This document shows positions 47,942-58,823 of a DNA stretch of 64,000 nt, piece by piece (position 1 is the stretch's first letter; each line of letters begins with the position of its first letter). The notes beneath the pieces were generated by a model. The model ran no database searches. It saw nothing but the letters and a program-made list of their open reading frames with translations, and had not been told where the DNA came from. The DNA comes from Deltaproteobacteria bacterium (lineage in GTDB: Bacteria > Desulfobacterota > Anaeroferrophillalia > Anaeroferrophillales > Tharpellaceae). The stretch is taken from contig JAFGVI010000139.1 in the NCBI GenBank assembly GCA_016938065.1, forward strand, positions 4,747 to 68,746. The letters are read 5' to 3'. The translations under genes and the position numbers were made by a program.

Positions 47942-50176
47942 TCATCCCAAAAGTTTTTCAATCTCCTTTATGGAGGAGAGCCGCAAAAGTTTTTGCGCCA
48001 CCGTTTTTGCCTCCGGTAGATTGATCGCGGCACAGGCCTTCTTGATGCGCGGCAGGAAAACCGGGTCGAGACTGAGGTTGCGCACACCGATCCCGAGCAG
48101 AAAAGGCAGATAGATCTCCCGGGAAGCCATTTCACCGCAGATGGAGACCGGAACGTTGTGCCGGCTTGCGCTCTGCATAATCCGCTTAAGTGTCCGCAGG
48201 ACTGCGGGATGGTGGGGCACATAGAATGAGGCGACTTTTTCATTGGTGCGATCAACCGCAAGCAGGTACTGAATCAGATCATTGGTCCCGATCGAAAAAA
48301 AATCAGCTTCCCCGGCGAGATCGTCAAGGATGTCGACAACGGCGGGAATTTCAACCATAATTCCGATTTTCGGCGCCTGACAGAACTTTTCCCCCTCAGC
48401 TTTCAGCTCCTGCTGACAATCATACAATACCTGTCGGGCCTCAAGGAACTCCTCCAGAGACGACACCATCGGAAACATGATGCGCAAATCACTCTCAGCA
48501 CAAGCCCGCATAACCGCCCGTAATTGACGGGCAAAGATATCCTTATGGCCGAGTGAGAATCTGATTGAGCGCATCCCCATAAAGGGATTCTCCTCTTTTT
48601 CGTGATGGTAGTAGGAGAGTACTTTGTCGCCGCCGATATCAAGCGTCCTGAAAACCAGTGGCTTACCCGGCATTCCGGCGGCAAGGCGCTGGTAGACCAG
48701 AAACTGCTCCGCTTCCGAAGGAAAATCACTGCGCACTAAAAATGGAATCTCACTCCGATAAAGACCGATCCCTTGCGCCCGATAACGATTGGCCATTTTA
48801 AGATCAGAGAGGAGATTAATATTAGAATAGAGGAATACTTTTTCCCCATCACGGGTCATCGTCAGCTCGGCAATTTCGGCCTCATCAATCTCTACCTCCT
48901 GCTGCTTCTTCGTGAAAATCTCAATTACAGAGGGTGCCGGATTGACATAGACATTACCAATCGTCGCATCAAGCAGAACAAAGCTGTTGCGATCCAGAGC
49001 CAGCAGTTGGGGTTCATCGGCTATTACCAGCGGGATGCCCAAAGAACGGGCCAGAAGAGCAACATGCGATGTCACCCCGCCACTAACCAGGACAATCCCT
49101 AAGATTTTCTCATGGCTCAATTTAAGAATATCTGAAGGCAGAAGCTGATCGGCAATCACCACCTTATCACCGAGATCACCAAGGTCATCTTGGGGACCTG
49201 ACAGATTGCGCAGAAGGCGAAGGGCAAGATCTCTGACATCATCGGCTTTTTCCCTGATATAGTGATCTTCGACCCTGGAAAAATGACTTATATAAAAATC
49301 TGCGGTCTCCACAATGGCAGCCCCGGGAGAGCTTCCCTGAGCAATCAGAGTTTCAATTTTCGCAAGCAGGCTACTGTCTTTCAGCATCAGCAGATGGGCG
49401 CTGAAAATCAGTGAGGCGACATCTGAAAGCTGGGCCTCAACCTCGGACTGAATCATTTCAAGCTGAACTTCCGTCTTTTTGACGCATTCATGAAAATCGT
49501 TAAGGGTTAATCCCTTTAACGGCATTTCCGCAAGATATTCGCTTAAATCCTGATAGCGGCGCAGCACCAGGGCCCGACCTTTAACCAGCCCTTGAGAGGC
49601 ACTCTGGCCGTGCACCAATGCCAGCTCAATCTTCGGTTTGCTAATATTGACAGCATCAGACCGTCTCTCGATATGGCCCAGAAGCCTGACATTTTCAATG
49701 ATATTAGCCAACTGTGAGGCAATCGTCTGGGTCACCGTAACTTCCGCTTGAGAAAATGGTTTTTCCTCCTCTCTCTGCAGAACGATTACCCCGATCTTAT
49801 TAATACCCCGTAAAATCGGAACCGCCATGAAGGCTTCGTAGAGCTCTTCATTGAGCCCGCCAAAAAACTTATAGGCCGGATGCAGGCTGGCCTTGGCCGC
49901 GACAATCGTTCTCTTTTCGGCCAGAGCCGTACCCGTCAGTCCCTGGCCCTCCAGCATCCGCACCACTCCCACAGCGCCCGCTTTCAAACCATGAGTTGCC
50001 TTGAGCCTGAGCTCCCGCTGCTCTTCTTCATAGAGATAGAGCGAACAGACCGTGGTCTGCATATGACCCGCCACCATATCGACCAGTTTCGCCAAGAAAA
50101 GATCGATACTTTGACTTTCATTGAAGATCCAGTTCAGTTCTGACAAATCACATAATAACTCTAGATGGTTCTGCAC
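47942..50176 (-). CDS. ptsP: Phosphoenolpyruvate-protein phosphotransferase PtsP (EI-Ntr, GAF-EI)
   Basis: 744 aa. N-terminal GAF. EI phosphohistidine region GGVTSHVALLARSLGIP. PEP-utilising C-terminus IGTNDLIQY. Confidence 0.9.
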   Translation of the reverse strand: MQNHLELLCDLSELNWIFNESQSIDLFLAKLVDMVAGHMQTTVCSLYLYEEEQRELRLKATHGLKAGAVGVVRMLEGQGLTGTALAEKRTIVAAKASLHPAYKFFGGLNEELYEAFMAVPILRGINKIGVIVLQREEEKPFSQAEVTVTQTIASQLANIIENVRLLGHIERRSDAVNISKPKIELALVHGQSASQGLVKGRALVLRRYQDLSEYLAEMPLKGLTLNDFHECVKKTEVQLEMIQSEVEAQLSDVASLIFSAHLLMLKDSSLLAKIETLIAQGSSPGAAIVETADFYISHFSRVEDHYIREKADDVRDLALRLLRNLSGPQDDLGDLGDKVVIADQLLPSDILKLSHEKILGIVLVSGGVTSHVALLARSLGIPLVIADEPQLLALDRNSFVLLDATIGNVYVNPAPSVIEIFTKKQQEVEIDEAEIAELTMTRDGEKVFLYSNINLLSDLKMANRYRAQGIGLYRSEIPFLVRSDFPSEAEQFLVYQRLAAGMPGKPLVFRTLDIGGDKVLSYYHHEKEENPFMGMRSIRFSLGHKDIFARQLRAVMRACAESDLRIMFPMVSSLEEFLEARQVLYDCQQELKAEGEKFCQAPKIGIMVEIPAVVDILDDLAGEADFFSIGTNDLIQYLLAVDRTNEKVASFYVPHHPAVLRTLKRIMQSASRHNVPVSICGEMASREIYLPFLLGIGVRNLSLDPVFLPRIKKACAAINLPEAKTVAQKLLRLSSIKEIEKLLG

Positions 50177-50237
50177 TTTTTTCCTTTTTATCTTGTCTCT
50201 ATTTCAAGCATTCCGAGCAACTAAATTCTCTCAGTTG

Positions 50238-51128
50238 TCAGCGCAGTCTGAAGATCGTCCGGTTGCGCCCGGAGCCTTTGGCTTTGTACAGCATTTCGTC
50301 AGCCCGGTGCAGAAGCTCATCGAGAGTTCGAGTGGAGGCATCGGCGGCGGCGACCCCTTCACTGATGGTACAGCCGACCAGCTCGCCGCCAACCAGCTCG
50401 ATCTTAAGTTCTTCCACCTTTTTTCTGAGCAATTCAAGTTTTTCGACGACACAGACCTCATCGGAATGGCGGCAAATGATGGCGAACTCCTCCCCGCCAA
50501 GGCGGCCGAAGATCGAATCTGGCTCAATATTTTCGGCAATCACCCGGGTTACGGCCTTGATCACCATATCCCCGACGGCGTGGCCGTAACTGTCATTGAT
50601 ATGCTTGAACTTGTCAATATCGAGCATGGCGGCATAGAGGTTATCGGGGTTTTCGGCAAACTTACGTTTGGCCAGCTCGAAAAATTTACGCCGGTTATAG
50701 ATCCCGGTCATTGCGTCATAGGAAGCCAGAAATTCAAGTTTTTCGATCATCTCCTGATGTTCAAGCTGAATTTTCACCCGGGCGAGAAGCTCTTTCGGTT
50801 TAAACGGTTTAGTGACATAATCTACCCCGCCCTCATCGTAGGCTTTTTCGATGGCATCCTCTTCGGTTCTGGCGGTAATAAAAATGATTGGTATATCTTT
50901 AGTTTTTTCATTTTGTTTAAGTTTACGGCAAACCGTATAGCCATCCATTTCCGGCATCATGATATCAAGCAGGATCAGATCGATGGCCTCTTCCGCGACA
51001 ATTTCCAGAGCCTCCGGTCCCCCGGTAGCTTCAATAACATCGAAATCCTTAAGCAGATCAACGATAATGTCGAGATTGGCCACGGTGTCGTCAACCGCCA
51101 GAATCGTTCTTCTTTCAAGCATCATCAC
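50238..51128 (-). CDS. Response regulator-diguanylate cyclase (REC-GGDEF)
   Basis: 296 aa. REC ILLDIMMPEMDG. GGDEF domain with an intact RLGGEEF. No RxxD I-site is visible upstream of the GGEEF. ATGA overlap with the upstream kinase. Confidence 0.88.
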   Translation of the reverse strand: MMMLERRTILAVDDTVANLDIIVDLLKDFDVIEATGGPEALEIVAEEAIDLILLDIMMPEMDGYTVCRKLKQNEKTKDIPIIFITARTEEDAIEKAYDEGGVDYVTKPFKPKELLARVKIQLEHQEMIEKLEFLASYDAMTGIYNRRKFFELAKRKFAENPDNLYAAMLDIDKFKHINDSYGHAVGDMVIKAVTRVIAENIEPDSIFGRLGGEEFAIICRHSDEVCVVEKLELLRKKVEELKIELVGGELVGCTISEGVAAADASTRTLDELLHRADEMLYKAKGSGRNRTIFRLR

Positions 51129-54100
51129 TCACCTGCGAGAAGGCCGGCCGCCGCCTTGAAATCGCGGGCCATAACCATTTTTTCCAGAGCCGTTAAAAGC
51201 TTATCTTGCTCCGGGTCAAGCCGGTACTTTCTAAGCTCCTCAATAATCGGGCTGCACTCTCTTGAGCGACGGCGGGCGAGAGCCGGCTTCAGGGCAGCAA
51301 TTTTTTCGGCAAAGAGCGCGGCACTTATCACCTCCGCGGACGGCTTCACCCCCTCATCCGCAGCCATCAGACTGCGCTCTATATCACTGAAGACCAGCTC
51401 CAGCTGCGCGTACAGATACGGCAAACGAGAGGCTTCCGGGTGCTCTTCCAGCTCGAGGCAGACCCGGTGCAGGGCCAGAGCCCCGATATTGGCACTCAAC
51501 CCTTTCAGCGTATGAATCGTCCGGGCCGCAAGATCATAGTCGGCGAAATCAATTTTCACCCCCTTGAACTCTTCGACAAAACTCCGCAGGATTCTGACAT
51601 AAAGCCCTTCATCGCCGGCAAGATGACTTAAACCCTTCTGCACATCAATAACCTGACATCTTTCTGCGCTGAACCGCCGGCGAGCCGGAGCCGCAAGCTT
51701 GGCCTCGACCTCAACATCGCTCCCGGCCGGCGCGGTTGTGCCGCCCAGATAGCGCAGGAGTACCTCATACAATTTCTCAACTTCAATCGGCTTGTTGAGA
51801 TGCTCATTCATGCCCGCCCGACGGGTATTTTCCACATCTTCAGCCATGGCATTGGCCGTCAGTGCAATAATCGGAATATCCCGGTCGCTTTCCCGAATAA
51901 AGCCGGTCGCTTCATATCCGTCCAGATGCGGCATCTGCAGATCCATCAAAATCAGGTCGTAGTGCTTTTCCCGGCTCAGGGCCACAGCCTGGCGCCCATC
52001 CTCGGCAACATCAATTTTGATGCCGGAGGCCTCAAGCAACCCGAGCACTATCTCCTGGTTGGTAGAATTATCCTCGGCCAGAAGAATTGTTTTCCCCCGT
52101 AAAACTGCAAGCTCATCCTGCAGACTCCGCTGTTTCGTTCCGAGCTTAAGCGGCAGAACTTTACCTCCGCCACTGAAAATTCCGGCCAGAACATCGTGCA
52201 GAACCGAGGGATTGACCGGTTTCTGTAAAAATATTTCGATACCGACCTCTTTTGCTAGATTAACAATACTCTCCTGACGAAAGGCGCTGACCATAATGAC
52301 CGTGGGCGGTACCCGGTCTGATGAACATTGGCGCTTAATCAGACGGGTAGTTTCGATGCCATCAAGACCCGGCATATTCCAATCCATCAGAATCAGATCA
52401 AAGGGCCGGCGACAGCGATCCAGCAGAGCAAGCGCCTCCCGTCCGGAATCAGCAATGACAACTTCGACCCCGAAGGAACGAAGCAGGCTTTCCAGCACCT
52501 CCTGCCAGGTCAAATTATCCTCGACAATGAGCACCCTCTTCCCGCAGAAAGCGGAAATGCTCTTTTCCGCTTTGACCACCGGAATCAGTTCAATCTCAAA
52601 AGTAAAAGTGCTGCCCGCGCCCTCCCTGGAGGCGACCTCAATGGTACCGCCCATCAGTTCGACCAGCTGTTTTGAAATCGCCAGCCCCAAACCGGTGCCG
52701 CCATATTTTCTCGAGGTACTGCCGTCGGCCTGAGAAAACGAGCGGAAAAGCTTCTTCTGCATCAGCTCACTCATCCCGATACCCGTATCCCTCACCGCAA
52801 AATGAACCCGGTTCTCTCCAGCCTGATTGACATAGAGACCTATTTCCCCACGCTCGGTAAATTTTACCGCATTGCCAATCAGATTAGTCAGCACCTGTGA
52901 AATGCGTAAAGGGTCACCGTGAAAGTTGCGCCCGAGTTCAGCACCATAACTGACGATCAGTTCAATATTTTTCTCATGAGTTTTGAATTCTACCAGACCA
53001 ATGACCGTGTCGATAACCTCAAACAGATCAAAATCGATCTTCTCGATCGCCAGCTTGCCTGCCTCGATCTTGGAAAAATCGAGAATATCATTAATAATCG
53101 CAAGAAGAGAATAGGACGAGCTCTCGATTTTCTGCAGAAAATTTCGCTGTCTGCCATCAAGATCAGTCTGCAGAACCAAATGGGTCATACCCAGCACTCC
53201 GTTCATCGGAGTCCTTATTTCATGCGACATATTAGCAAGAAACTCAGATTTTGAGCGTGTTGCCGCCTCGGCCCTATCTTTTGCCTCAAGCAGTTCATCC
53301 TTAATTTTTCTAGCCTCGGAAATATCCCTTAAGACAACATGAATCAGATTTTCTCCCTGCAGGCGTATTCGGGTCAGCGTCACTTCGGCCCAGAAATTGT
53401 TGCCATCAGCTCGAGTATGCAGCCACTCAAACTTGTTGGCCCCATGTTCCAGACAGACAGCCATCAGCTGGTTGGCTTTTGCGTACGATGCCTGACCATC
53501 CGGCTGCACCTGAGGGGAAAAGCGGGCAGGATGGGAATCAAGCAGCTCCTGCCGGTCTTTACATCTAAGCATCTTCACGGCAGATGCATTGCAGTCAACA
53601 ACTCTTCCCTGTTTAATGATTATGACCGCATCAACGGTGTCGTAAAAAAGGGTTTCAAAAACCTCTTTCTGTTCCTCAAGATCACGGGTGCGCTCACTGA
53701 CTTTTTTATCAAGGGTATTGATATTCTCTTCGAGGGTATCAAGCATGCCGTCAAAAGTCAGCGCCAGAGTACCGATTTCATCCGTCGCCCGAATATCACT
53801 TCGCACCCGCAGATTACCCTCTTTCACCTGCAGCGCCTTTCGCGACAGAGTCTCGATGGGACGCAGCAGTTTTTTAAAAAAATAGCCGCTCAACAACAGA
53901 GTCAGCACCAACAGGGCCAAAGAGATAAACCAGATATAATCTCTTATCTGATTTGCGGCCAAATTGATCTCTTCGATATAAGCTGAACTGCAGATATACC
54001 AGTCGAAATCTTTATTATAATCTATCCACGACACCTTCTTATAGATATAGTGACCTTTATCTGCAGGCTTATCCCAGCTGTAGTAAAGGACTTTACTGCC

Positions 54101-55363
54101 GGAACGATAGGCTTCGATCATATCGTTGAGAATAAAACTTTTCTTTCCGGGATTTTCGAGCTGGGCAAAATTCTTCCCCTCAATATTGGAATTGGGATGA
54201 ATTATCATATTCCCTTTTGAGTCAAAAATATAAATATACCCGGTCTCTCCTATCTTGGTACTGCTCAGCAACTTGCGTAAATTTTTAACCAGTTCGATTT
54301 TCTTTCTTTCAACCTCACGTTCGATACGGTCAAGATAAATACCGGTACTGATAACCCAGTGCCAGGGCTCGATATGTTTGGAAAAAGTCAATTTGTCAAA
54401 GAGTTGTTCCTCATCTGTCAGCTTACGCCAGGAGTAGCAATGAAACCCCTCACCCTTCTCCCGGGCAACGCTGACCATGGGCGGCACAATTAAAACCCCA
54501 GCCGGATCTCTGACCTCAGACATATCTTTACCCTCGATAAAAGGGTGGCTGATCAGAACTGAATCATAGTCACTTATAAAAAAATATTCATTATCGCCAT
54601 ACCTGAGCTTGGCAATATACTGCATGGCCTCTTGCTGTTTCTGGCGCTGGACTTCAGGCAGATAAAAACCGGTACCGATAATCCAGTCACACGGCGCAAA
54701 ATAAAAAACAGAGGTTAATTTCTCTTCGACCTTGCCCGACGCCGGATTGGGCCATTTATAACTGGTAAAACCCTCGCCCTTGCCGGCGGCGATCTCAGCA
54801 AACTCGCGGATAAAGTATTTCCCGTCCGCATCCTTAAGATCAATCAGATCGCGCCCCTCAAGCTCTGGTTTTATAGGATGCAGAATGCAGCGGGTCCCGC
54901 GATTAATGAAAAAATACCCGATGCCGCCATCATAGCGATATAACCTGACGAAATCCTTTATAATTTTTTCAATCTCTGGCGGTGAGTCACTCCGCCGCTT
55001 GAGCTCAAAGTAATGCAGCAGCGTTTTTTTAAATGCTTCCGCCTGAATCCGAAGATGTTCCTTGACCGCCTCAGGCTGGGAAGACTGATAGAGCTCTTCA
55101 ATCAGCTTGAAAGCCACCTCCGTTATATTTTTCAGCTCCTCCCGATGCATGGCCAGAGAATTCTGCCGGTAACTTTTCAACTCCCGAGCCGCGGTCTCAA
55201 CCACGGTCGTGACCTCCTGCAAATGAGCCTTGCCGGTTTTCTCTTCAAGATGAATAGTTCTCTCCTCAACTTTCGGCGCGACAAAGAAAACCATCACCCC
55301 GCTGTAAACGGCGATAATCAGAAGGGTTACCGCGAGAACTTTAAAATAAATTTTGGAAAACAT
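51125..55363 (-). CDS. Hybrid sensor histidine kinase: triple Cache-like periplasmic region, HAMP, PAS, HisKA, HATPase, two REC, HPt
   Basis: 1412 aa. TM helices at about residues 8-29 and 477-496. Three Y[FI][FY]I...HP modules. H-box SHEIRTPMNGVLG, GTGLGLAISK, REC LILMDWNMPGLDG and LILMDLQMPHLDG, HPt HTLKGLSANIGA. Confidence 0.88.
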   Translation of the reverse strand: MFSKIYFKVLAVTLLIIAVYSGVMVFFVAPKVEERTIHLEEKTGKAHLQEVTTVVETAARELKSYRQNSLAMHREELKNITEVAFKLIEELYQSSQPEAVKEHLRIQAEAFKKTLLHYFELKRRSDSPPEIEKIIKDFVRLYRYDGGIGYFFINRGTRCILHPIKPELEGRDLIDLKDADGKYFIREFAEIAAGKGEGFTSYKWPNPASGKVEEKLTSVFYFAPCDWIIGTGFYLPEVQRQKQQEAMQYIAKLRYGDNEYFFISDYDSVLISHPFIEGKDMSEVRDPAGVLIVPPMVSVAREKGEGFHCYSWRKLTDEEQLFDKLTFSKHIEPWHWVISTGIYLDRIEREVERKKIELVKNLRKLLSSTKIGETGYIYIFDSKGNMIIHPNSNIEGKNFAQLENPGKKSFILNDMIEAYRSGSKVLYYSWDKPADKGHYIYKKVSWIDYNKDFDWYICSSAYIEEINLAANQIRDYIWFISLALLVLTLLLSGYFFKKLLRPIETLSRKALQVKEGNLRVRSDIRATDEIGTLALTFDGMLDTLEENINTLDKKVSERTRDLEEQKEVFETLFYDTVDAVIIIKQGRVVDCNASAVKMLRCKDRQELLDSHPARFSPQVQPDGQASYAKANQLMAVCLEHGANKFEWLHTRADGNNFWAEVTLTRIRLQGENLIHVVLRDISEARKIKDELLEAKDRAEAATRSKSEFLANMSHEIRTPMNGVLGMTHLVLQTDLDGRQRNFLQKIESSSYSLLAIINDILDFSKIEAGKLAIEKIDFDLFEVIDTVIGLVEFKTHEKNIELIVSYGAELGRNFHGDPLRISQVLTNLIGNAVKFTERGEIGLYVNQAGENRVHFAVRDTGIGMSELMQKKLFRSFSQADGSTSRKYGGTGLGLAISKQLVELMGGTIEVASREGAGSTFTFEIELIPVVKAEKSISAFCGKRVLIVEDNLTWQEVLESLLRSFGVEVVIADSGREALALLDRCRRPFDLILMDWNMPGLDGIETTRLIKRQCSSDRVPPTVIMVSAFRQESIVNLAKEVGIEIFLQKPVNPSVLHDVLAGIFSGGGKVLPLKLGTKQRSLQDELAVLRGKTILLAEDNSTNQEIVLGLLEASGIKIDVAEDGRQAVALSREKHYDLILMDLQMPHLDGYEATGFIRESDRDIPIIALTANAMAEDVENTRRAGMNEHLNKPIEVEKLYEVLLRYLGGTTAPAGSDVEVEAKLAAPARRRFSAERCQVIDVQKGLSHLAGDEGLYVRILRSFVEEFKGVKIDFADYDLAARTIHTLKGLSANIGALALHRVCLELEEHPEASRLPYLYAQLELVFSDIERSLMAADEGVKPSAEVISAALFAEKIAALKPALARRRSRECSPIIEELRKYRLDPEQDKLLTALEKMVMARDFKAAAGLLAGE

Positions 55364-55427: not shown

Positions 55428-57212
55428 TTACCGGGCCGAGAGCAGTTCCGCTATAACCTGCTGCATCATCTCCAGCTTGCAGGGTTTCGGCAGCACCCCC
55501 TTGAAACCGTAATCAGAATAATTCGCCATGACCGGATTATTACAGTATCCGCTAGTGGCAACTGCTACCACATCAGCATCCAGCTTACGCAGTTCCCGAA
55601 TAGTTTCCTCTCCGCCCATGCCTCCGGGTACGGTTAAATCGAGAATAACGATATCAATCGGCTGGTTGCGATGGCGCGCCTCCTGGTACAATTTAATGGC
55701 TTCACGGCCATCAGCTGCAGTAGTTACGTTGTAACCGACAAAACTTAAAAGTTCAGCAGTAGTCTCGCAAACGATTACATCGTCGTCCATTACCAGGACA
55801 CGGCCACCAGACATAGAGGACTTAAGCTCTTCGTCAACGACCTCAGGCAGAGCGGATTCTAACGCCGGCAGCAGCACTTCGAATGTGGTACCCACCCCCA
55901 GTTGTGAAGCTACGGAAATATGCCCAAGATGCTTGCCGATAATCGCATGAGAAATTGCCAGTCCGAGCCCGTTGCCGGTCTCTTTGGTCGTAAAATACGG
56001 GTCGAAAATTTTATTCAAATTTTCGGGCGCAATACCGACCCCATGATCTCTGATTGCCAGCAAAACATAGTTGCCCGGAGCCAGACCGGAATGCTCATTT
56101 TCCGCAACGTAAAGATTTCTACAGGAAACTTCGATTTTACCGCCGTGCGGCATCGCCTGATCGCAATTAATGATGAGATTCCTGATAACCTGATCAATCT
56201 GTCCGGGATCGGCCCTGACGGTAAAAAGATCTGCAGGAAGGGTAAAATGACACTGAACGTTTGAACCGGACAGGGCGAACAGGACTGAATCCTGCACCAG
56301 TTTGGCAAAGGTTACATCTTGAAGCACCGGCAGCCCGCCCTTGGCAAAGGTCAGAAGCTGCTGGGTCAAATGCTGAGCCCGGGATGCTGCAGTTTCAGTT
56401 TTCTGCAACAGGGCATATATTTTATCTTGCGGTTCACTATGCACTCTCGCCAGAGTAACATTGTTAAGAATGGCGGCCAGAAAATTATTAAAATCGTGGG
56501 CCAGGCCTCCGGCCAGCAGACCTAATGATTCAAGTTTCTGACTGCGGGCCATCTCTTCATCGAGCCGTCTCTGAGCAGTCACATCAACAAAAACCACAAC
56601 TACAGCACTTATCCCGCCATCATCATTGCGTACCGGGGTCGCAATAGCGTCATAGTAGCACCCGCCAATCAGCCATTCCAGCTTACGGCAGGTCACCCCT
56701 TCAGCTACGACCTTCTGCATCAGGCAGAAATCCGCAGGTGCCTCTCGGTCACAGATAGCCTGATAACAGGCACAACCCGAGAGGTCTGATTTGCCTCTGA
56801 GAATATGGATTACCGCATAATTATTACTGTTCAATATGCAGCAATTAACATCCAGCACGACAATGCCGATCGGGGCCGAGTCGAAAACCGCCTGCAACTC
56901 TTCGTGAATGACGCGCAGATCTTCGTTGGTATCCTTTAAATGTTCAATCACCTGGCTGAAAGCTTCGCTGACAATACCGATAGGGTCGAGCTCAATCAGG
57001 GTTTGATCATCAAGTTCCTCCGGCCTTAAAGGCACCGTACCGATAACCTGTAAAAGCTGGTCTACTTTACGGCGAATATAGAGAAAATTCTGCTGCTGCT
57101 GCGTTTTAAGTTCGGCATTTTCCTGCCGTAGCCGGGCAATTTCAGCACGGAGCTCCTGAGCGCAAGCAGTCGTAAGCTCGGGCCCCGGGGAGCACGATTC
57201 AGGGGTTTTCAT
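55428..57212 (-). CDS. Cytoplasmic PAS histidine kinase with C-terminal REC (hybrid), Cys-rich PAS
   Basis: 594 aa, no TM. Coiled coil, then PAS with 8 Cys, H-box GGLAHDFNNFL, HATPase DHGVGI / GNGLGLAISH, REC IVILDLTVPGGMGG. The ATG overlaps the TusA-like TGA. Confidence 0.85.
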   Translation of the reverse strand: MKTPESCSPGPELTTACAQELRAEIARLRQENAELKTQQQQNFLYIRRKVDQLLQVIGTVPLRPEELDDQTLIELDPIGIVSEAFSQVIEHLKDTNEDLRVIHEELQAVFDSAPIGIVVLDVNCCILNSNNYAVIHILRGKSDLSGCACYQAICDREAPADFCLMQKVVAEGVTCRKLEWLIGGCYYDAIATPVRNDDGGISAVVVVFVDVTAQRRLDEEMARSQKLESLGLLAGGLAHDFNNFLAAILNNVTLARVHSEPQDKIYALLQKTETAASRAQHLTQQLLTFAKGGLPVLQDVTFAKLVQDSVLFALSGSNVQCHFTLPADLFTVRADPGQIDQVIRNLIINCDQAMPHGGKIEVSCRNLYVAENEHSGLAPGNYVLLAIRDHGVGIAPENLNKIFDPYFTTKETGNGLGLAISHAIIGKHLGHISVASQLGVGTTFEVLLPALESALPEVVDEELKSSMSGGRVLVMDDDVIVCETTAELLSFVGYNVTTAADGREAIKLYQEARHRNQPIDIVILDLTVPGGMGGEETIRELRKLDADVVAVATSGYCNNPVMANYSDYGFKGVLPKPCKLEMMQQVIAELLSAR

Positions 57213-57457
57213 ACTTTTACCTTAATCGCGTAATAGCCATCTAATTTTTCGACAGTGACCACATAACCCATATTGTGCAGGGCTTCAGGTACGGTCGTAG
57301 TAGCATCACGATTATCGGTCAGGATTAAAATCTCCTGCAGCCTGCTTTTAATCGCCTGGCGCCGGGTATTGATCTCGCGCAGGGTAATGAGCAGTGAAGA
57401 TGGGCATATCTGGCCGCGAATGTCAAATTCGACGACGCTGGGAAGATTGTTTGTCAT
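57209..57457 (-). CDS. TusA/YedF-family sulfur-carrier-like protein
   Basis: 82 aa. FDIRGQICPSSLL matches the TusA-type G-x-x-CP motif. Downstream of the YeeE/YedE gene. Confidence 0.7.
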   Translation of the reverse strand: MTNNLPSVVEFDIRGQICPSSLLITLREINTRRQAIKSRLQEILILTDNRDATTTVPEALHNMGYVVTVEKLDGYYAIKVKV

Positions 57458-57539
57458 GATACACTCTTGAAATTATATCTTTAAACTCAAAAAAAGAGAG
57501 GGTGGATACAACCGGAAGGAGGGTCACAACCATGATAAT

Positions 57540-58676
57540 TCAGGTTCGAAGAATAAAGCCTGCCAAAAGTCGAGCCCCGAACCAGGCCCCGGGCAGCAAA
57601 CCAGCCAAAAAAAAGAAACTCTGCAGAGCCAGAATCGGCAGACCGCCTAGCAGATGCCAAACGTTGCAGCCTGGGGCCATACGCGAAGCCAGCCCCATTA
57701 TAATACCTCCGACCAGAACACTGCCGTATTGACGTAACGGCAGACGCCAGCGCAAGCTAAACTCTCCCAGCCTAATGGCGGAAAAGAGTGAACCAAGAAT
57801 AATGCCGACAATCACTGGTCCCTGAATATAAGCTATCGCATCAAGCCCCGGAGCACCGCCACCCACGAGCTGCAGATCGAAGCGGCTCAGCCTTACATTC
57901 AAAGGCTGACCCTGAAAATAAACCAGAGCGGCAAAATGCTGAGGCCAGAGAAAACGCTCGAAAAAACCTGCAATTTTGGCGTAAGTGGTCGTAATCTCCA
58001 TCGGCATGCCGACAATACAGTAACTGCATAAATTTATCAACGCTAACCCTGTCGCGGCGCGCCATGGTTGCAGATAGCCGTCGGCATAAGCCTGGCGCAG
58101 CCAGAGACCCCGCTGATGCCATTTCCAGAAAAAAAACATACTGACGATTACGGTCGGCAGAACAATAACATACGGATCACACCCGATCAGCTGCGGCAAG
58201 GTAACGATTCCCGGGAAAAGAGCTGTATTTCTGGCAAAAACTGACCATGAGGGATGTATCTCAGCATAAAGTCCACTGCCGATTATAAGTCCGGAAAATG
58301 CGGTTAAACTCAAGAGGCTGCCGGCTCCCATTTTATAAAGGGTGCCGACGACGCAACCGCCAGCCAGAACCATGCCCAGACCGAAAAGAAAACCACCGAT
58401 TATATTAGAAAAAGATAGTGAGCCCAGCAGGGGGAAAGGATAAAAAGGGAGCAGATTCAGGAAACGTGCACCCTCGAACAGAACCATGGCAGAAACAATC
58501 AACAGCATCAGGGTTCTGAGCATAAAGGTTGCGCGAAAAAGAAAAAGATCACGAAACATGCCGGCCATGCAGTAGTCCGATCGGTGCATGATAAAACCAG
58601 CACTGAAACCGATAATCAGGCAAGTTCCAGCTAAAAAAATGACCTCGTAAGGCATAGCATTACCGAATATGATCAT
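57540..58676 (-). CDS. YeeE/YedE family inner-membrane transporter (thiosulfate/sulfur- or selenium-compound uptake)
   Basis: 378 aa polytopic protein. Two repeated halves each contain Cys in a G-x-C motif (SDYCMAGMF, AGGCVVGTLYK, APGCNVWHLLGG), typical of the family. Confidence 0.8.
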   Translation of the reverse strand: MIIFGNAMPYEVIFLAGTCLIIGFSAGFIMHRSDYCMAGMFRDLFLFRATFMLRTLMLLIVSAMVLFEGARFLNLLPFYPFPLLGSLSFSNIIGGFLFGLGMVLAGGCVVGTLYKMGAGSLLSLTAFSGLIIGSGLYAEIHPSWSVFARNTALFPGIVTLPQLIGCDPYVIVLPTVIVSMFFFWKWHQRGLWLRQAYADGYLQPWRAATGLALINLCSYCIVGMPMEITTTYAKIAGFFERFLWPQHFAALVYFQGQPLNVRLSRFDLQLVGGGAPGLDAIAYIQGPVIVGIILGSLFSAIRLGEFSLRWRLPLRQYGSVLVGGIIMGLASRMAPGCNVWHLLGGLPILALQSFFFLAGLLPGAWFGARLLAGFILRT

Positions 58677-58767: not shown

Positions 58768-58794
58768 AAAAAAAGGCATGGATAAACCATACCT
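58768..58794 (-). terminator. Rho-independent terminator after nuoN
   Basis: On the minus strand, stem AGGTATGG/CCATGCCT (8 bp, one G-U) with loop TTTAT, followed by T7. Confidence 0.6.
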
Positions 58795-58823
58795 TTTTCG
58801 TTGAACAAAGAGTAACTTTTCGT

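Follow-up and report, generated by a model that had tools for sequence, protein, structure and literature searches.

A conserved module of a YeeE-family importer, a TusA-like carrier and a PAS sensor with an uncatalogued N-terminal domain is a candidate transporter-fed sulfur-sensing relay of anaerobic bacteria

We analysed a stretch of 64,000 nucleotides (hereafter the window; positions are counted from its first letter) of the Deltaproteobacteria bacterium assembly GCA_016938065.1 (contig JAFGVI010000139.1, positions 4,747 to 68,746 of the forward strand), and describe here a module of three adjoining genes on its minus strand. These genes code for a YeeE-family importer, a TusA-like sulfur-carrier protein and a soluble hybrid sensor kinase. 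The carrier gene and the sensor gene are found side by side almost without exception in the genomes and metagenomes searched, a dedicated clade of YeeE importers accompanies them nearly as constantly, and the part of the kinase that is conserved in this association is its sensory head. On balance we favour the view that the three proteins form a self-contained, transporter-fed relay for sensing sulfur, with the carrier handing the signal on to the sensor. The module is probably a so far undescribed way for anaerobes to report sulfur outside the cell to a kinase and to signalling by cyclic diguanylate (c-di-GMP). It bears on how anaerobic bacteria that cycle sulfur, metals and sulfate perceive reduced sulfur outside the cell. 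The sulfane-sulfur sensors we know of are the cytoplasmic repressors CstR, SqrR and SoxR; among kinases, NreB is the single example known to us, and it responds directly to sulfide.

Since a strong terminator-like hairpin of 13 pairs followed by a T-run lies 3' of nuoN (58769-58799, minus strand) and sets the nuo operon apart from the module, yeeE (57540-58676, 378 amino acids; Pfam Sulf_transp PF04143, 5e-46) appears to open a new transcription unit. After a gap of 82 bp (57458-57539) it is followed by the tusA-like gene (57209-57457, 82 amino acids; Pfam TusA PF01206, 1.2e-10). The stop codon of the latter overlaps the start codon of the kinase gene (55428-57212, 594 amino acids) in an ATGA at 57209-57212, read as TCAT on the plus strand, which points to translational coupling. 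An AAGG is located 9 nt 5' of the kinase start codon. This gene order with its coordinates, gap and overlap had already been given in a first-pass annotation of the DNA and agrees exactly with the open reading frame (ORF) list and the sequence. The PAS-HisKA-HATPase-REC architecture proposed there for the kinase is borne out by Pfam matches above the cut-offs for all four domains, which are preceded by an additional N-terminal domain (N-domain) described below. As expected for the soluble, cytoplasmic protein that was predicted, no hydrophobic membrane-spanning stretch was seen in the kinase sequence.

The conservation of the gene arrangement was assessed from several directions. Among 60 relatives, an orthologue of the sensor part of the kinase was present in four genomes, two from the same genus and two from another family, and in all four yeeE and tusA lie directly upstream of it. 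The ATGA overlap is retained in both genomes of the same genus whereas in the other family 43 bp separate the two genes. The flanking genes differ in three of the four relatives, and within the genus the distribution is patchy (3 of 17 genomes). Judged by these different flanks in different genomes, the module seems to behave like a mobile accessory cassette. When 185,579 species genomes were scanned with the motifs of the carrier, 32 loci were obtained, from Thermodesulfobacteriota (including Geobacter, Desulfuromonas and Desulfurivibrio), Nitrospirota and a few metagenome-assembled genomes with other labels. Geobacter argillaceus and a Desulfurivibrio sp. are cultured hosts of the module. 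A homologue of the first ~215 residues of the kinase is encoded directly downstream of the carrier in every one of them; YeeE is found upstream in 30, in fragments in one and not at all in another one.

Searches in the reverse direction led to the same picture. From the 251 metagenomic relatives matched by the N-domain alone, the best 80 were kept, of which 76 could be judged. YeeE followed by the TusA-like protein is encoded directly upstream of the sensor in 70 of these, with tusA overlapping the sensor start in four; in five the order is permuted, with both genes downstream of the sensor, and in a single one both genes are absent. Furthermore, in 401 species genomes sampled evenly across the phylum the N-domain occurs in 22, belonging to 17 of 254 genera, always as a single copy. 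A TusA-like gene stands immediately upstream of the sensor at all 17 further genome loci that could be judged (degraded in one of them), and YeeE is present at 14. With the window YeeE as query and a threshold of E<=1e-20, its clade was detected in 20 of the 22 sensor-containing genomes and in none of the 379 others (Fisher p = 8e-32, a value that is overstated since the genomes are related). This YeeE clade is the dedicated, nearly constant third member of the module. With more than 120 independent loci, the arrangement is not due to chance. The linkage to the carrier, whose restriction to a single genome had been named as the finding that would speak against its significance, is thus seen at 32 of 32 loci in the forward direction and at 75 of 76 and 17 of 17 in the reverse one.

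At 14 loci a conserved downstream partner, i.e. an Hpt protein or a response regulator, was sought and none was found; the next gene is often located on the opposite strand. As the flanks vary and no downstream partner is conserved, the three genes can be regarded as a functional unit. The three genome loci without YeeE differ from each other. In genome G295 (L161, G295:C1, 3632-7097) two rhodaneses recognized by Pfam, the first of them secreted, take the place of YeeE in front of the TusA-like protein and the sensor, and the module-type YeeE of this genome is unlinked and stands alone about 200 kb away (L172, 4064-5176). In G090 a TusA-like gene is paired with a PAS-only sensor without a nearby YeeE, and the third locus is degraded. 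A further variant, found on L170 (2531-4516, protein P0107), is a kinase of the order GAF-[N-domain]-HisKA-HATPase, with an internal N-domain and no PAS; no YeeE is encoded within 2.5 kb, a TusA-family gene stands 175 bp upstream of it, and it adjoins an IS66 transposase. Because variants without a nearby YeeE or without PAS still have a carrier, the invariant pair of the module consists of the carrier and the N-domain.

The window YeeE matches the Pfam model PF04143 with 158 bits (cut-off 27) over profile positions 1-310 of 310 and aligns to the thiosulfate transporter TsuA of S. thermophila (6LEO) with 6e-25. Its residues C36, C108 and C337 (58569-58571, 58353-58355 and 57666-57668, minus strand) align with the 6LEO motifs RICF, GGCA and GGCN, i.e. 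with C22, C91 and C293 of S. thermophila TsuA, and are conserved in 100% of 65 non-redundant YeeEs of the module. None of the NCBIfam equivalog cut-offs is reached (NF052577, 111 versus 400 bits; NF041049, 60 versus 645; NF033796, 101 versus 350; TIGR04112, 49 versus 200). As the protein stays far below the cut-offs for TsuA and for YedE/FdhT, it is assigned to a separate clade. It is the sole full-length YeeE of the window assembly, which encodes one other TusA; the search for a metabolic paralogue of the kind found in the YTD clusters discussed below yielded only two half-size YeeE genes on a different contig. These two adjacent, PmpA/PmpB-like genes (window genome G000, contig C26, L002 1402-2597) sit between a cytochrome c peroxidase-like and a peroxiredoxin-like gene, and a TGA was flagged by the genome search within the open frame of each.

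The carrier is a divergent member of the TusA/SirA/YeeD family. It scores 41.5 bits against PF01206 (cut-off 28.6) and fails to reach the YedF equivalog NF008242 (19.3 bits, cut-off 79). Its Cys18 (57404-57406, minus strand), which is part of the motif FDIRGQICPSSLL, is conserved in 100% of 86 non-redundant carrier sequences. In an AlphaFold2 (AF2) model with a predicted local distance difference test score (pLDDT) of 85.8, the protein adopts a beta-alpha-beta-alpha-beta-beta fold of the two-layer TusA type, and Cys18 sits at the N-terminal end of helix 1, directly before its residues 20-31. The best Foldseek matches of the model are the SirA-like protein 3HZ7 (TM 0.74/0.81), YeeD in 8K1R and E. 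coli TusA (3LVJ), and its superposition on YeeD of the YeeE-YeeD complex 8K1R gave TMq 0.77 at 25% identity. On the sequence level no solved TusA or YeeD relative was matched among the PDB chains by phmmer, and a profile of 35 carrier sequences reaches only 3HZ7 in the PDB (E = 0.004). In the profile alignment Cys18 corresponds to the cysteine of GQVCP in 3HZ7, where the CPIP of the latter reads CPS[ST] in the carriers, the second proline being replaced by serine or threonine.

The most conserved element of the sensor is its N-domain (residues 20-108; 56889-57155, minus strand), which consists of a helix, the conserved loop GTxPLxPEELDD..LDPIGI and a further helix. It is covered by no Pfam or NCBIfam model. 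The consensus of its ~90 residues reads YIRxKVNQLLxVMGTxPLxPEELDDxTLxxLDPIGI...F.Q.L.HL..TN, with the core from YIRxK to TN encoded at 56925-57080, and in 97 sensors the positions Y45, R47, K49, L54, G58, T59, L62, E65-D69, L72, D76-I80, F85 and N96 are near-invariant. Searching 1.84 billion representative sequences with an N-domain profile retrieved only 139 clusters with a sharp score edge, almost all of which carry the domain at the extreme N-terminus. An exceptional arrangement was seen on L171 (323-781), where a stand-alone protein of 152 amino acids (P0004) consists of two tandem N-domain copies, on a contig that is too short for neighbours.

The N-domain is followed by a PAS domain (residues 110-216; 56565-56885, minus strand; Pfam PAS_4) that is modelled with a pLDDT of ~90. 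An AF2 prediction of the whole sensor head from a 35-sequence alignment shows a long helix, the PEELDD loop at low confidence, a second long helix and the confident PAS fold. In this model the cysteine triad C149-x4-C154-x8-C163 (56724-56768) is located in the E-alpha/F-alpha region, which is the cofactor site of other PAS domains. The three cysteines are conserved in 80, 84 and 89% of the 97 sensors, respectively, and they are the only three of the eight cysteines of the window protein that are conserved. Foldseek returned only generic PAS and LOV matches for the sensor head and no structural match for the N-domain, and phmmer against the PDB chains gave nothing useful for the PAS domain. A sub-clade represented by L043, L050, L052 and L131 retains the N-domain, but its first PAS domain is of another kind and carries the ferredoxin-like motif C-x4-C-x2-C-x3-CP at residues ~140-165 (e.g. 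CFKFICPACNGTCP), a pattern suggestive of a metal or Fe-S site.

The remainder of the window kinase is that of a hybrid histidine kinase with all catalytic residues. Its kinase core (HisKA with H239 in LAHDFNN, and HATPase_c; 55863-56522, minus strand) and its receiver (55452-55799, minus strand; DD 476-477, D525, T553, K576) contain the phospho-acceptor H239 (AHDFNN), the N/G boxes NLIINCDQ, DHGVGI and GNGLGL, the acceptor D525 and K576. This output part is not what is conserved. Of the 201 clusters matching residues 20-215, the best 120, all of which bear generic database names, comprise about 47 hybrid kinases, 30 plain kinases, 27 GGDEF(-EAL) proteins and 16 PAS-only proteins, and some members join the same head to PAS-PAS-GGDEF-EAL according to Pfam. 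In a tree of 66 sensor heads the output class changes at least 11 times. The coupling of carrier and kinase noted in the first-pass annotation is real as a linkage, and its conserved partner is the N-domain with the Cys-triad PAS rather than the kinase core, since the output varies.

Based on these observations the following sequence of events can be envisaged. The YeeE-type channel, with its three cysteines intact, would admit a small sample of external thiosulfate or of polysulfide/sulfane sulfur. Cys18, the single invariant cysteine of the carrier, would take up this sulfur in the way in which the homologous YeeD/TsuB takes up thiosulfate, and the loaded carrier might then dock on the N-terminal helix-loop-helix domain of the sensor at the acidic PEELDD/LDPIGI loop. 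From there it could act on the adjoining PAS domain with the C149/C154/C163 triad in the classical cofactor pocket, be it by persulfidation, by polysulfide bridging of the thiols or by altering a cysteine-ligated Fe-S centre, and the resulting conformational change would reach the output via the helix that links N-domain and PAS. More tentatively, and with less conviction than we hold for the relay as a whole, we propose that the N-domain may be a dedicated receptor for a TusA-family carrier loaded with a persulfide or thiosulfonate, so that the carrier would serve as a protein messenger coupling the flux through a private YeeE importer, or in some lineages through rhodaneses, to two-component and c-di-GMP signalling.

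No Pfam match for an Hpt domain was obtained in the 594-amino-acid kinase, and its receiver must hence hand the phosphate to a separate Hpt protein. In the window genome, the neighbouring Cache kinase with its Hpt and, behind it, a REC-GGDEF protein are obvious candidates for a route from the hybrid kinase to c-di-GMP. The kinase gene is separated by a 64-bp gap without a clear terminator from the gene of this triple-Cache HAMP-PAS hybrid kinase (51125-55363, minus strand; 1412 amino acids, with two REC domains and an Hpt, Pfam), a possible downstream relay partner outside the conserved module. The next gene encodes the REC-GGDEF diguanylate cyclase (50238-51128, minus strand), a possible final output, which overlaps the Cache-kinase gene by 4 nt and is in turn followed by PtsP. 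Among the relatives compared, this neighbourhood is common only to the same-genus genome G003. As the window genome encodes several further Hpt domains and the neighbourhood is kept in one relative, the route is a guess, and the Cache-kinase and GGDEF genes were not counted in the module because no downstream partner is conserved. A c-di-GMP output as such is plausible in this genome, since many lineages have this head in direct fusion with GGDEF-EAL. An ORF of 464 amino acids on the plus strand (50121-51515) runs antisense to the REC-GGDEF and Cache-kinase genes; it has no Pfam match and is most likely a spurious shadow ORF.

Several observations weigh against a relay of the kind outlined above. 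The N-domain, the most conserved element of the sensor, contains no cysteine, and the proposed docking loop reaches a pLDDT of only 53-56 in the AF2 monomer. About 10-20% of the sensors are without at least one triad cysteine and yet retain the carrier and the channel. The window YeeE falls below the NCBIfam equivalog cut-offs for TsuA as well as YedE, 10 Hpt domains are encoded in the window genome, only one of them in the next gene, and the same genome contains a SelD of the selenocysteine type. Given the cysteine-free N-domain and the triad-less sensors that keep carrier and channel, a transfer of sulfur onto the sensor cannot be a universal step. The sensing relay suggested in the first-pass annotation is still the best fit to the conserved linkage; the hand-over of a persulfide to the kinase, which it envisaged, is one of several possible mechanisms, because only three of eight cysteines are conserved and the most conserved element has none.

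The same two features, the cysteine-free N-domain and the minority of sensors without triad cysteines, make the sensing of transport flux a serious alternative. Here the sensor head would dock on the YeeE-carrier complex and read its conformational cycle as a co-sensor, in the manner of trigger-transporters; no sulfur would be passed on, and the PAS cysteines would be structural or metal-binding. The physical complex formed by YeeE and YeeD (PMC11073785) is in line with such a mode of action. However, the pair of carrier and sensor survives without a nearby YeeE in G295, where the order is rhodanese-rhodanese-TusA-sensor, in G090 and in the GAF variant, and the invariant Cys18 of the carrier together with the largely conserved triad favours thiol chemistry. 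We therefore consider flux sensing unlikely.

Rather improbable, in our opinion, is a third possibility, in which the PAS triad ligates an NreB-type cluster that senses sulfide, oxygen or the redox state, and YeeE and the TusA-like protein supply or repair the sulfur of this cluster or deliver a labile sulfur ligand. Three conserved cysteines in the cofactor region of a PAS domain are reminiscent of B. licheniformis NreB, which senses sulfide through a [2Fe-2S] PAS domain with three cysteines (PMC13478379). This three-cysteine pattern and the sister PAS variant with its ferredoxin-like C-x4-C-x2-C-x3-CP (L043, L050, L052) keep an NreB-like Fe-S centre in play. However, the spacing is C-x4-C-x8-C and not C-x2-C-x11-C, and no similarity to NreB was detected in the best 25 of 107 NCBIfam matches nor in the PDB sequence and fold matches. 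Triad cysteines are absent in some members, and a private importer would not be needed for general Fe-S assembly.

Regulators are often encoded next to their targets, and the sensor might thus detect an unrelated cue and merely control the expression or activity of the sulfur-uptake pair in its operon. We regard this as quite improbable: the 14 loci inspected have no DNA-binding regulator in common next to the module, GGDEF-EAL proteins make up a quarter of the sensors and proteins without any output a further eighth, the sensor gene lies downstream of the carrier gene and is translationally coupled to it, and the N-domain is found essentially only adjoining TusA-like genes.

By analogy to YedE/YedF the signal could be selenium (selenide or selenite) instead of sulfur, for which the weak sub-threshold matches to YedE/FdhT (101 bits versus 350) and YedF (19 versus 79) and the selenocysteine-type SelD of the window genome could be cited, but this is very improbable, as the TsuA models are matched just as weakly or better, the closest structures found are those of TsuA and YeeD, a natural variant has rhodaneses as upstream donor and the hosts of the module are sulfur- and metal-respiring lineages. 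The SelD homologue in question (G000 contig C42:4043-4975, 360 bits) has one in-frame TGA and is probably a selenocysteine-containing protein, which suggests that the window organism uses selenium. No dsrA gene, which was used as a check for sulfate reducers with DsrAB, was found in the window assembly, which is 89% complete.

If the carrier indeed acts on the N-domain as a receptor, the latter would stand for a type of signalling input domain that is new, and the module would contain the first sensor kinase to be gated by a carrier protein. The transporter-fed relay would tie a sulfur importer to a phosphorelay and to c-di-GMP, and hence to decisions on biofilm formation or attachment on sulfur and mineral surfaces. 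Furthermore, the genomic signature of the N-domain is unusually clean and could be used to annotate several hundred proteins currently named 'PAS domain S-box' together with the YeeE and TusA paralogues encoded next to them. As a defined three-protein system the module is amenable to experiments, for which C18 of the carrier, C149/C154/C163 of the PAS domain and the PEELDD loop are the candidate residues.

In full-text literature searches, which covered open-access articles only, no description of the YeeE-TusA-PAS sensor unit or of the N-domain was found. The first-pass annotation knew of no described system of this kind, which agrees with this result as far as the module is concerned; a related principle has, however, been published. 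In Hyphomicrobium denitrificans signal transduction to the repressor SoxR is the function of the YeeE-like protein SoxT1B, and TusA is proposed to act in between (Li et al. 2024, PMC11582611), and the sensing concept is thus not wholly unprecedented. This SoxT1B-TusA-SoxR/sHdrR system is the closest precedent. It shares with the window module a three-cysteine YeeE-family importer that is used for signalling and not for bulk uptake, an adjoining TusA as the proposed cytoplasmic acceptor, a reduced-sulfur signal and an importer clade that is co-distributed with its receiver. In contrast, SoxT1B signals to a two-cysteine, DNA-binding repressor of the ArsR type encoded in a sox/shdr cluster, whereas the receiver of the module is a PAS kinase, a diguanylate cyclase or a PAS-only protein with a new N-domain that leads to a phosphorelay or to c-di-GMP. 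The module has no sox/shdr context, its neighbours in the window being nuo and two-component genes, it is found in anaerobic Thermodesulfobacteriota and Nitrospirota, and the translation of its receiver is coupled to that of the carrier.

The YeeE(TsuA)-YeeD(TsuB) system (Tanaka 2020; Ikei 2024, PMC11073785; 6LEO, 8K1R) comprises the same two protein families in the same gene order with the three channel cysteines and the carrier cysteine. YeeD binds YeeE and is needed for YeeE-mediated thiosulfate uptake, and its conserved cysteine is modified by thiosulfate (PMC11073785). That system is assimilatory and without a sensor partner, and the window proteins score far below the TsuA equivalog cut-offs. 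B. licheniformis NreB, which senses sulfide directly via a [2Fe-2S] cluster bound by C-x2-C-x11-C (PMC9918477, PMC13478379), is, like the window protein, a cytoplasmic histidine kinase with three conserved cysteines in its PAS domain. It reports reduced sulfur, and its gene is transcribed together with that of YrkI, a TusA homologue (PMC9918477). It differs in that it has neither YeeE nor the N-domain and belongs to an 11-gene sqr/pdo detoxification operon with its cognate regulator NreC. The YTD or yeeE-tusA-dsrEFH type II clusters (PMC13293266) also occur in Desulfobacterota and Nitrospirota and encode a YeeE-like importer followed by TusA. There the sulfur goes to DsrEFH and DsrC and thus into dissimilatory metabolism, whereas in the window module, whose host has no detectable dsrA, the sulfur or the signal would go to the sensor. 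Overall, what is new in the module presented here is an uncatalogued domain within what is probably transporter-fed sulfur sensing, which is itself a known principle.

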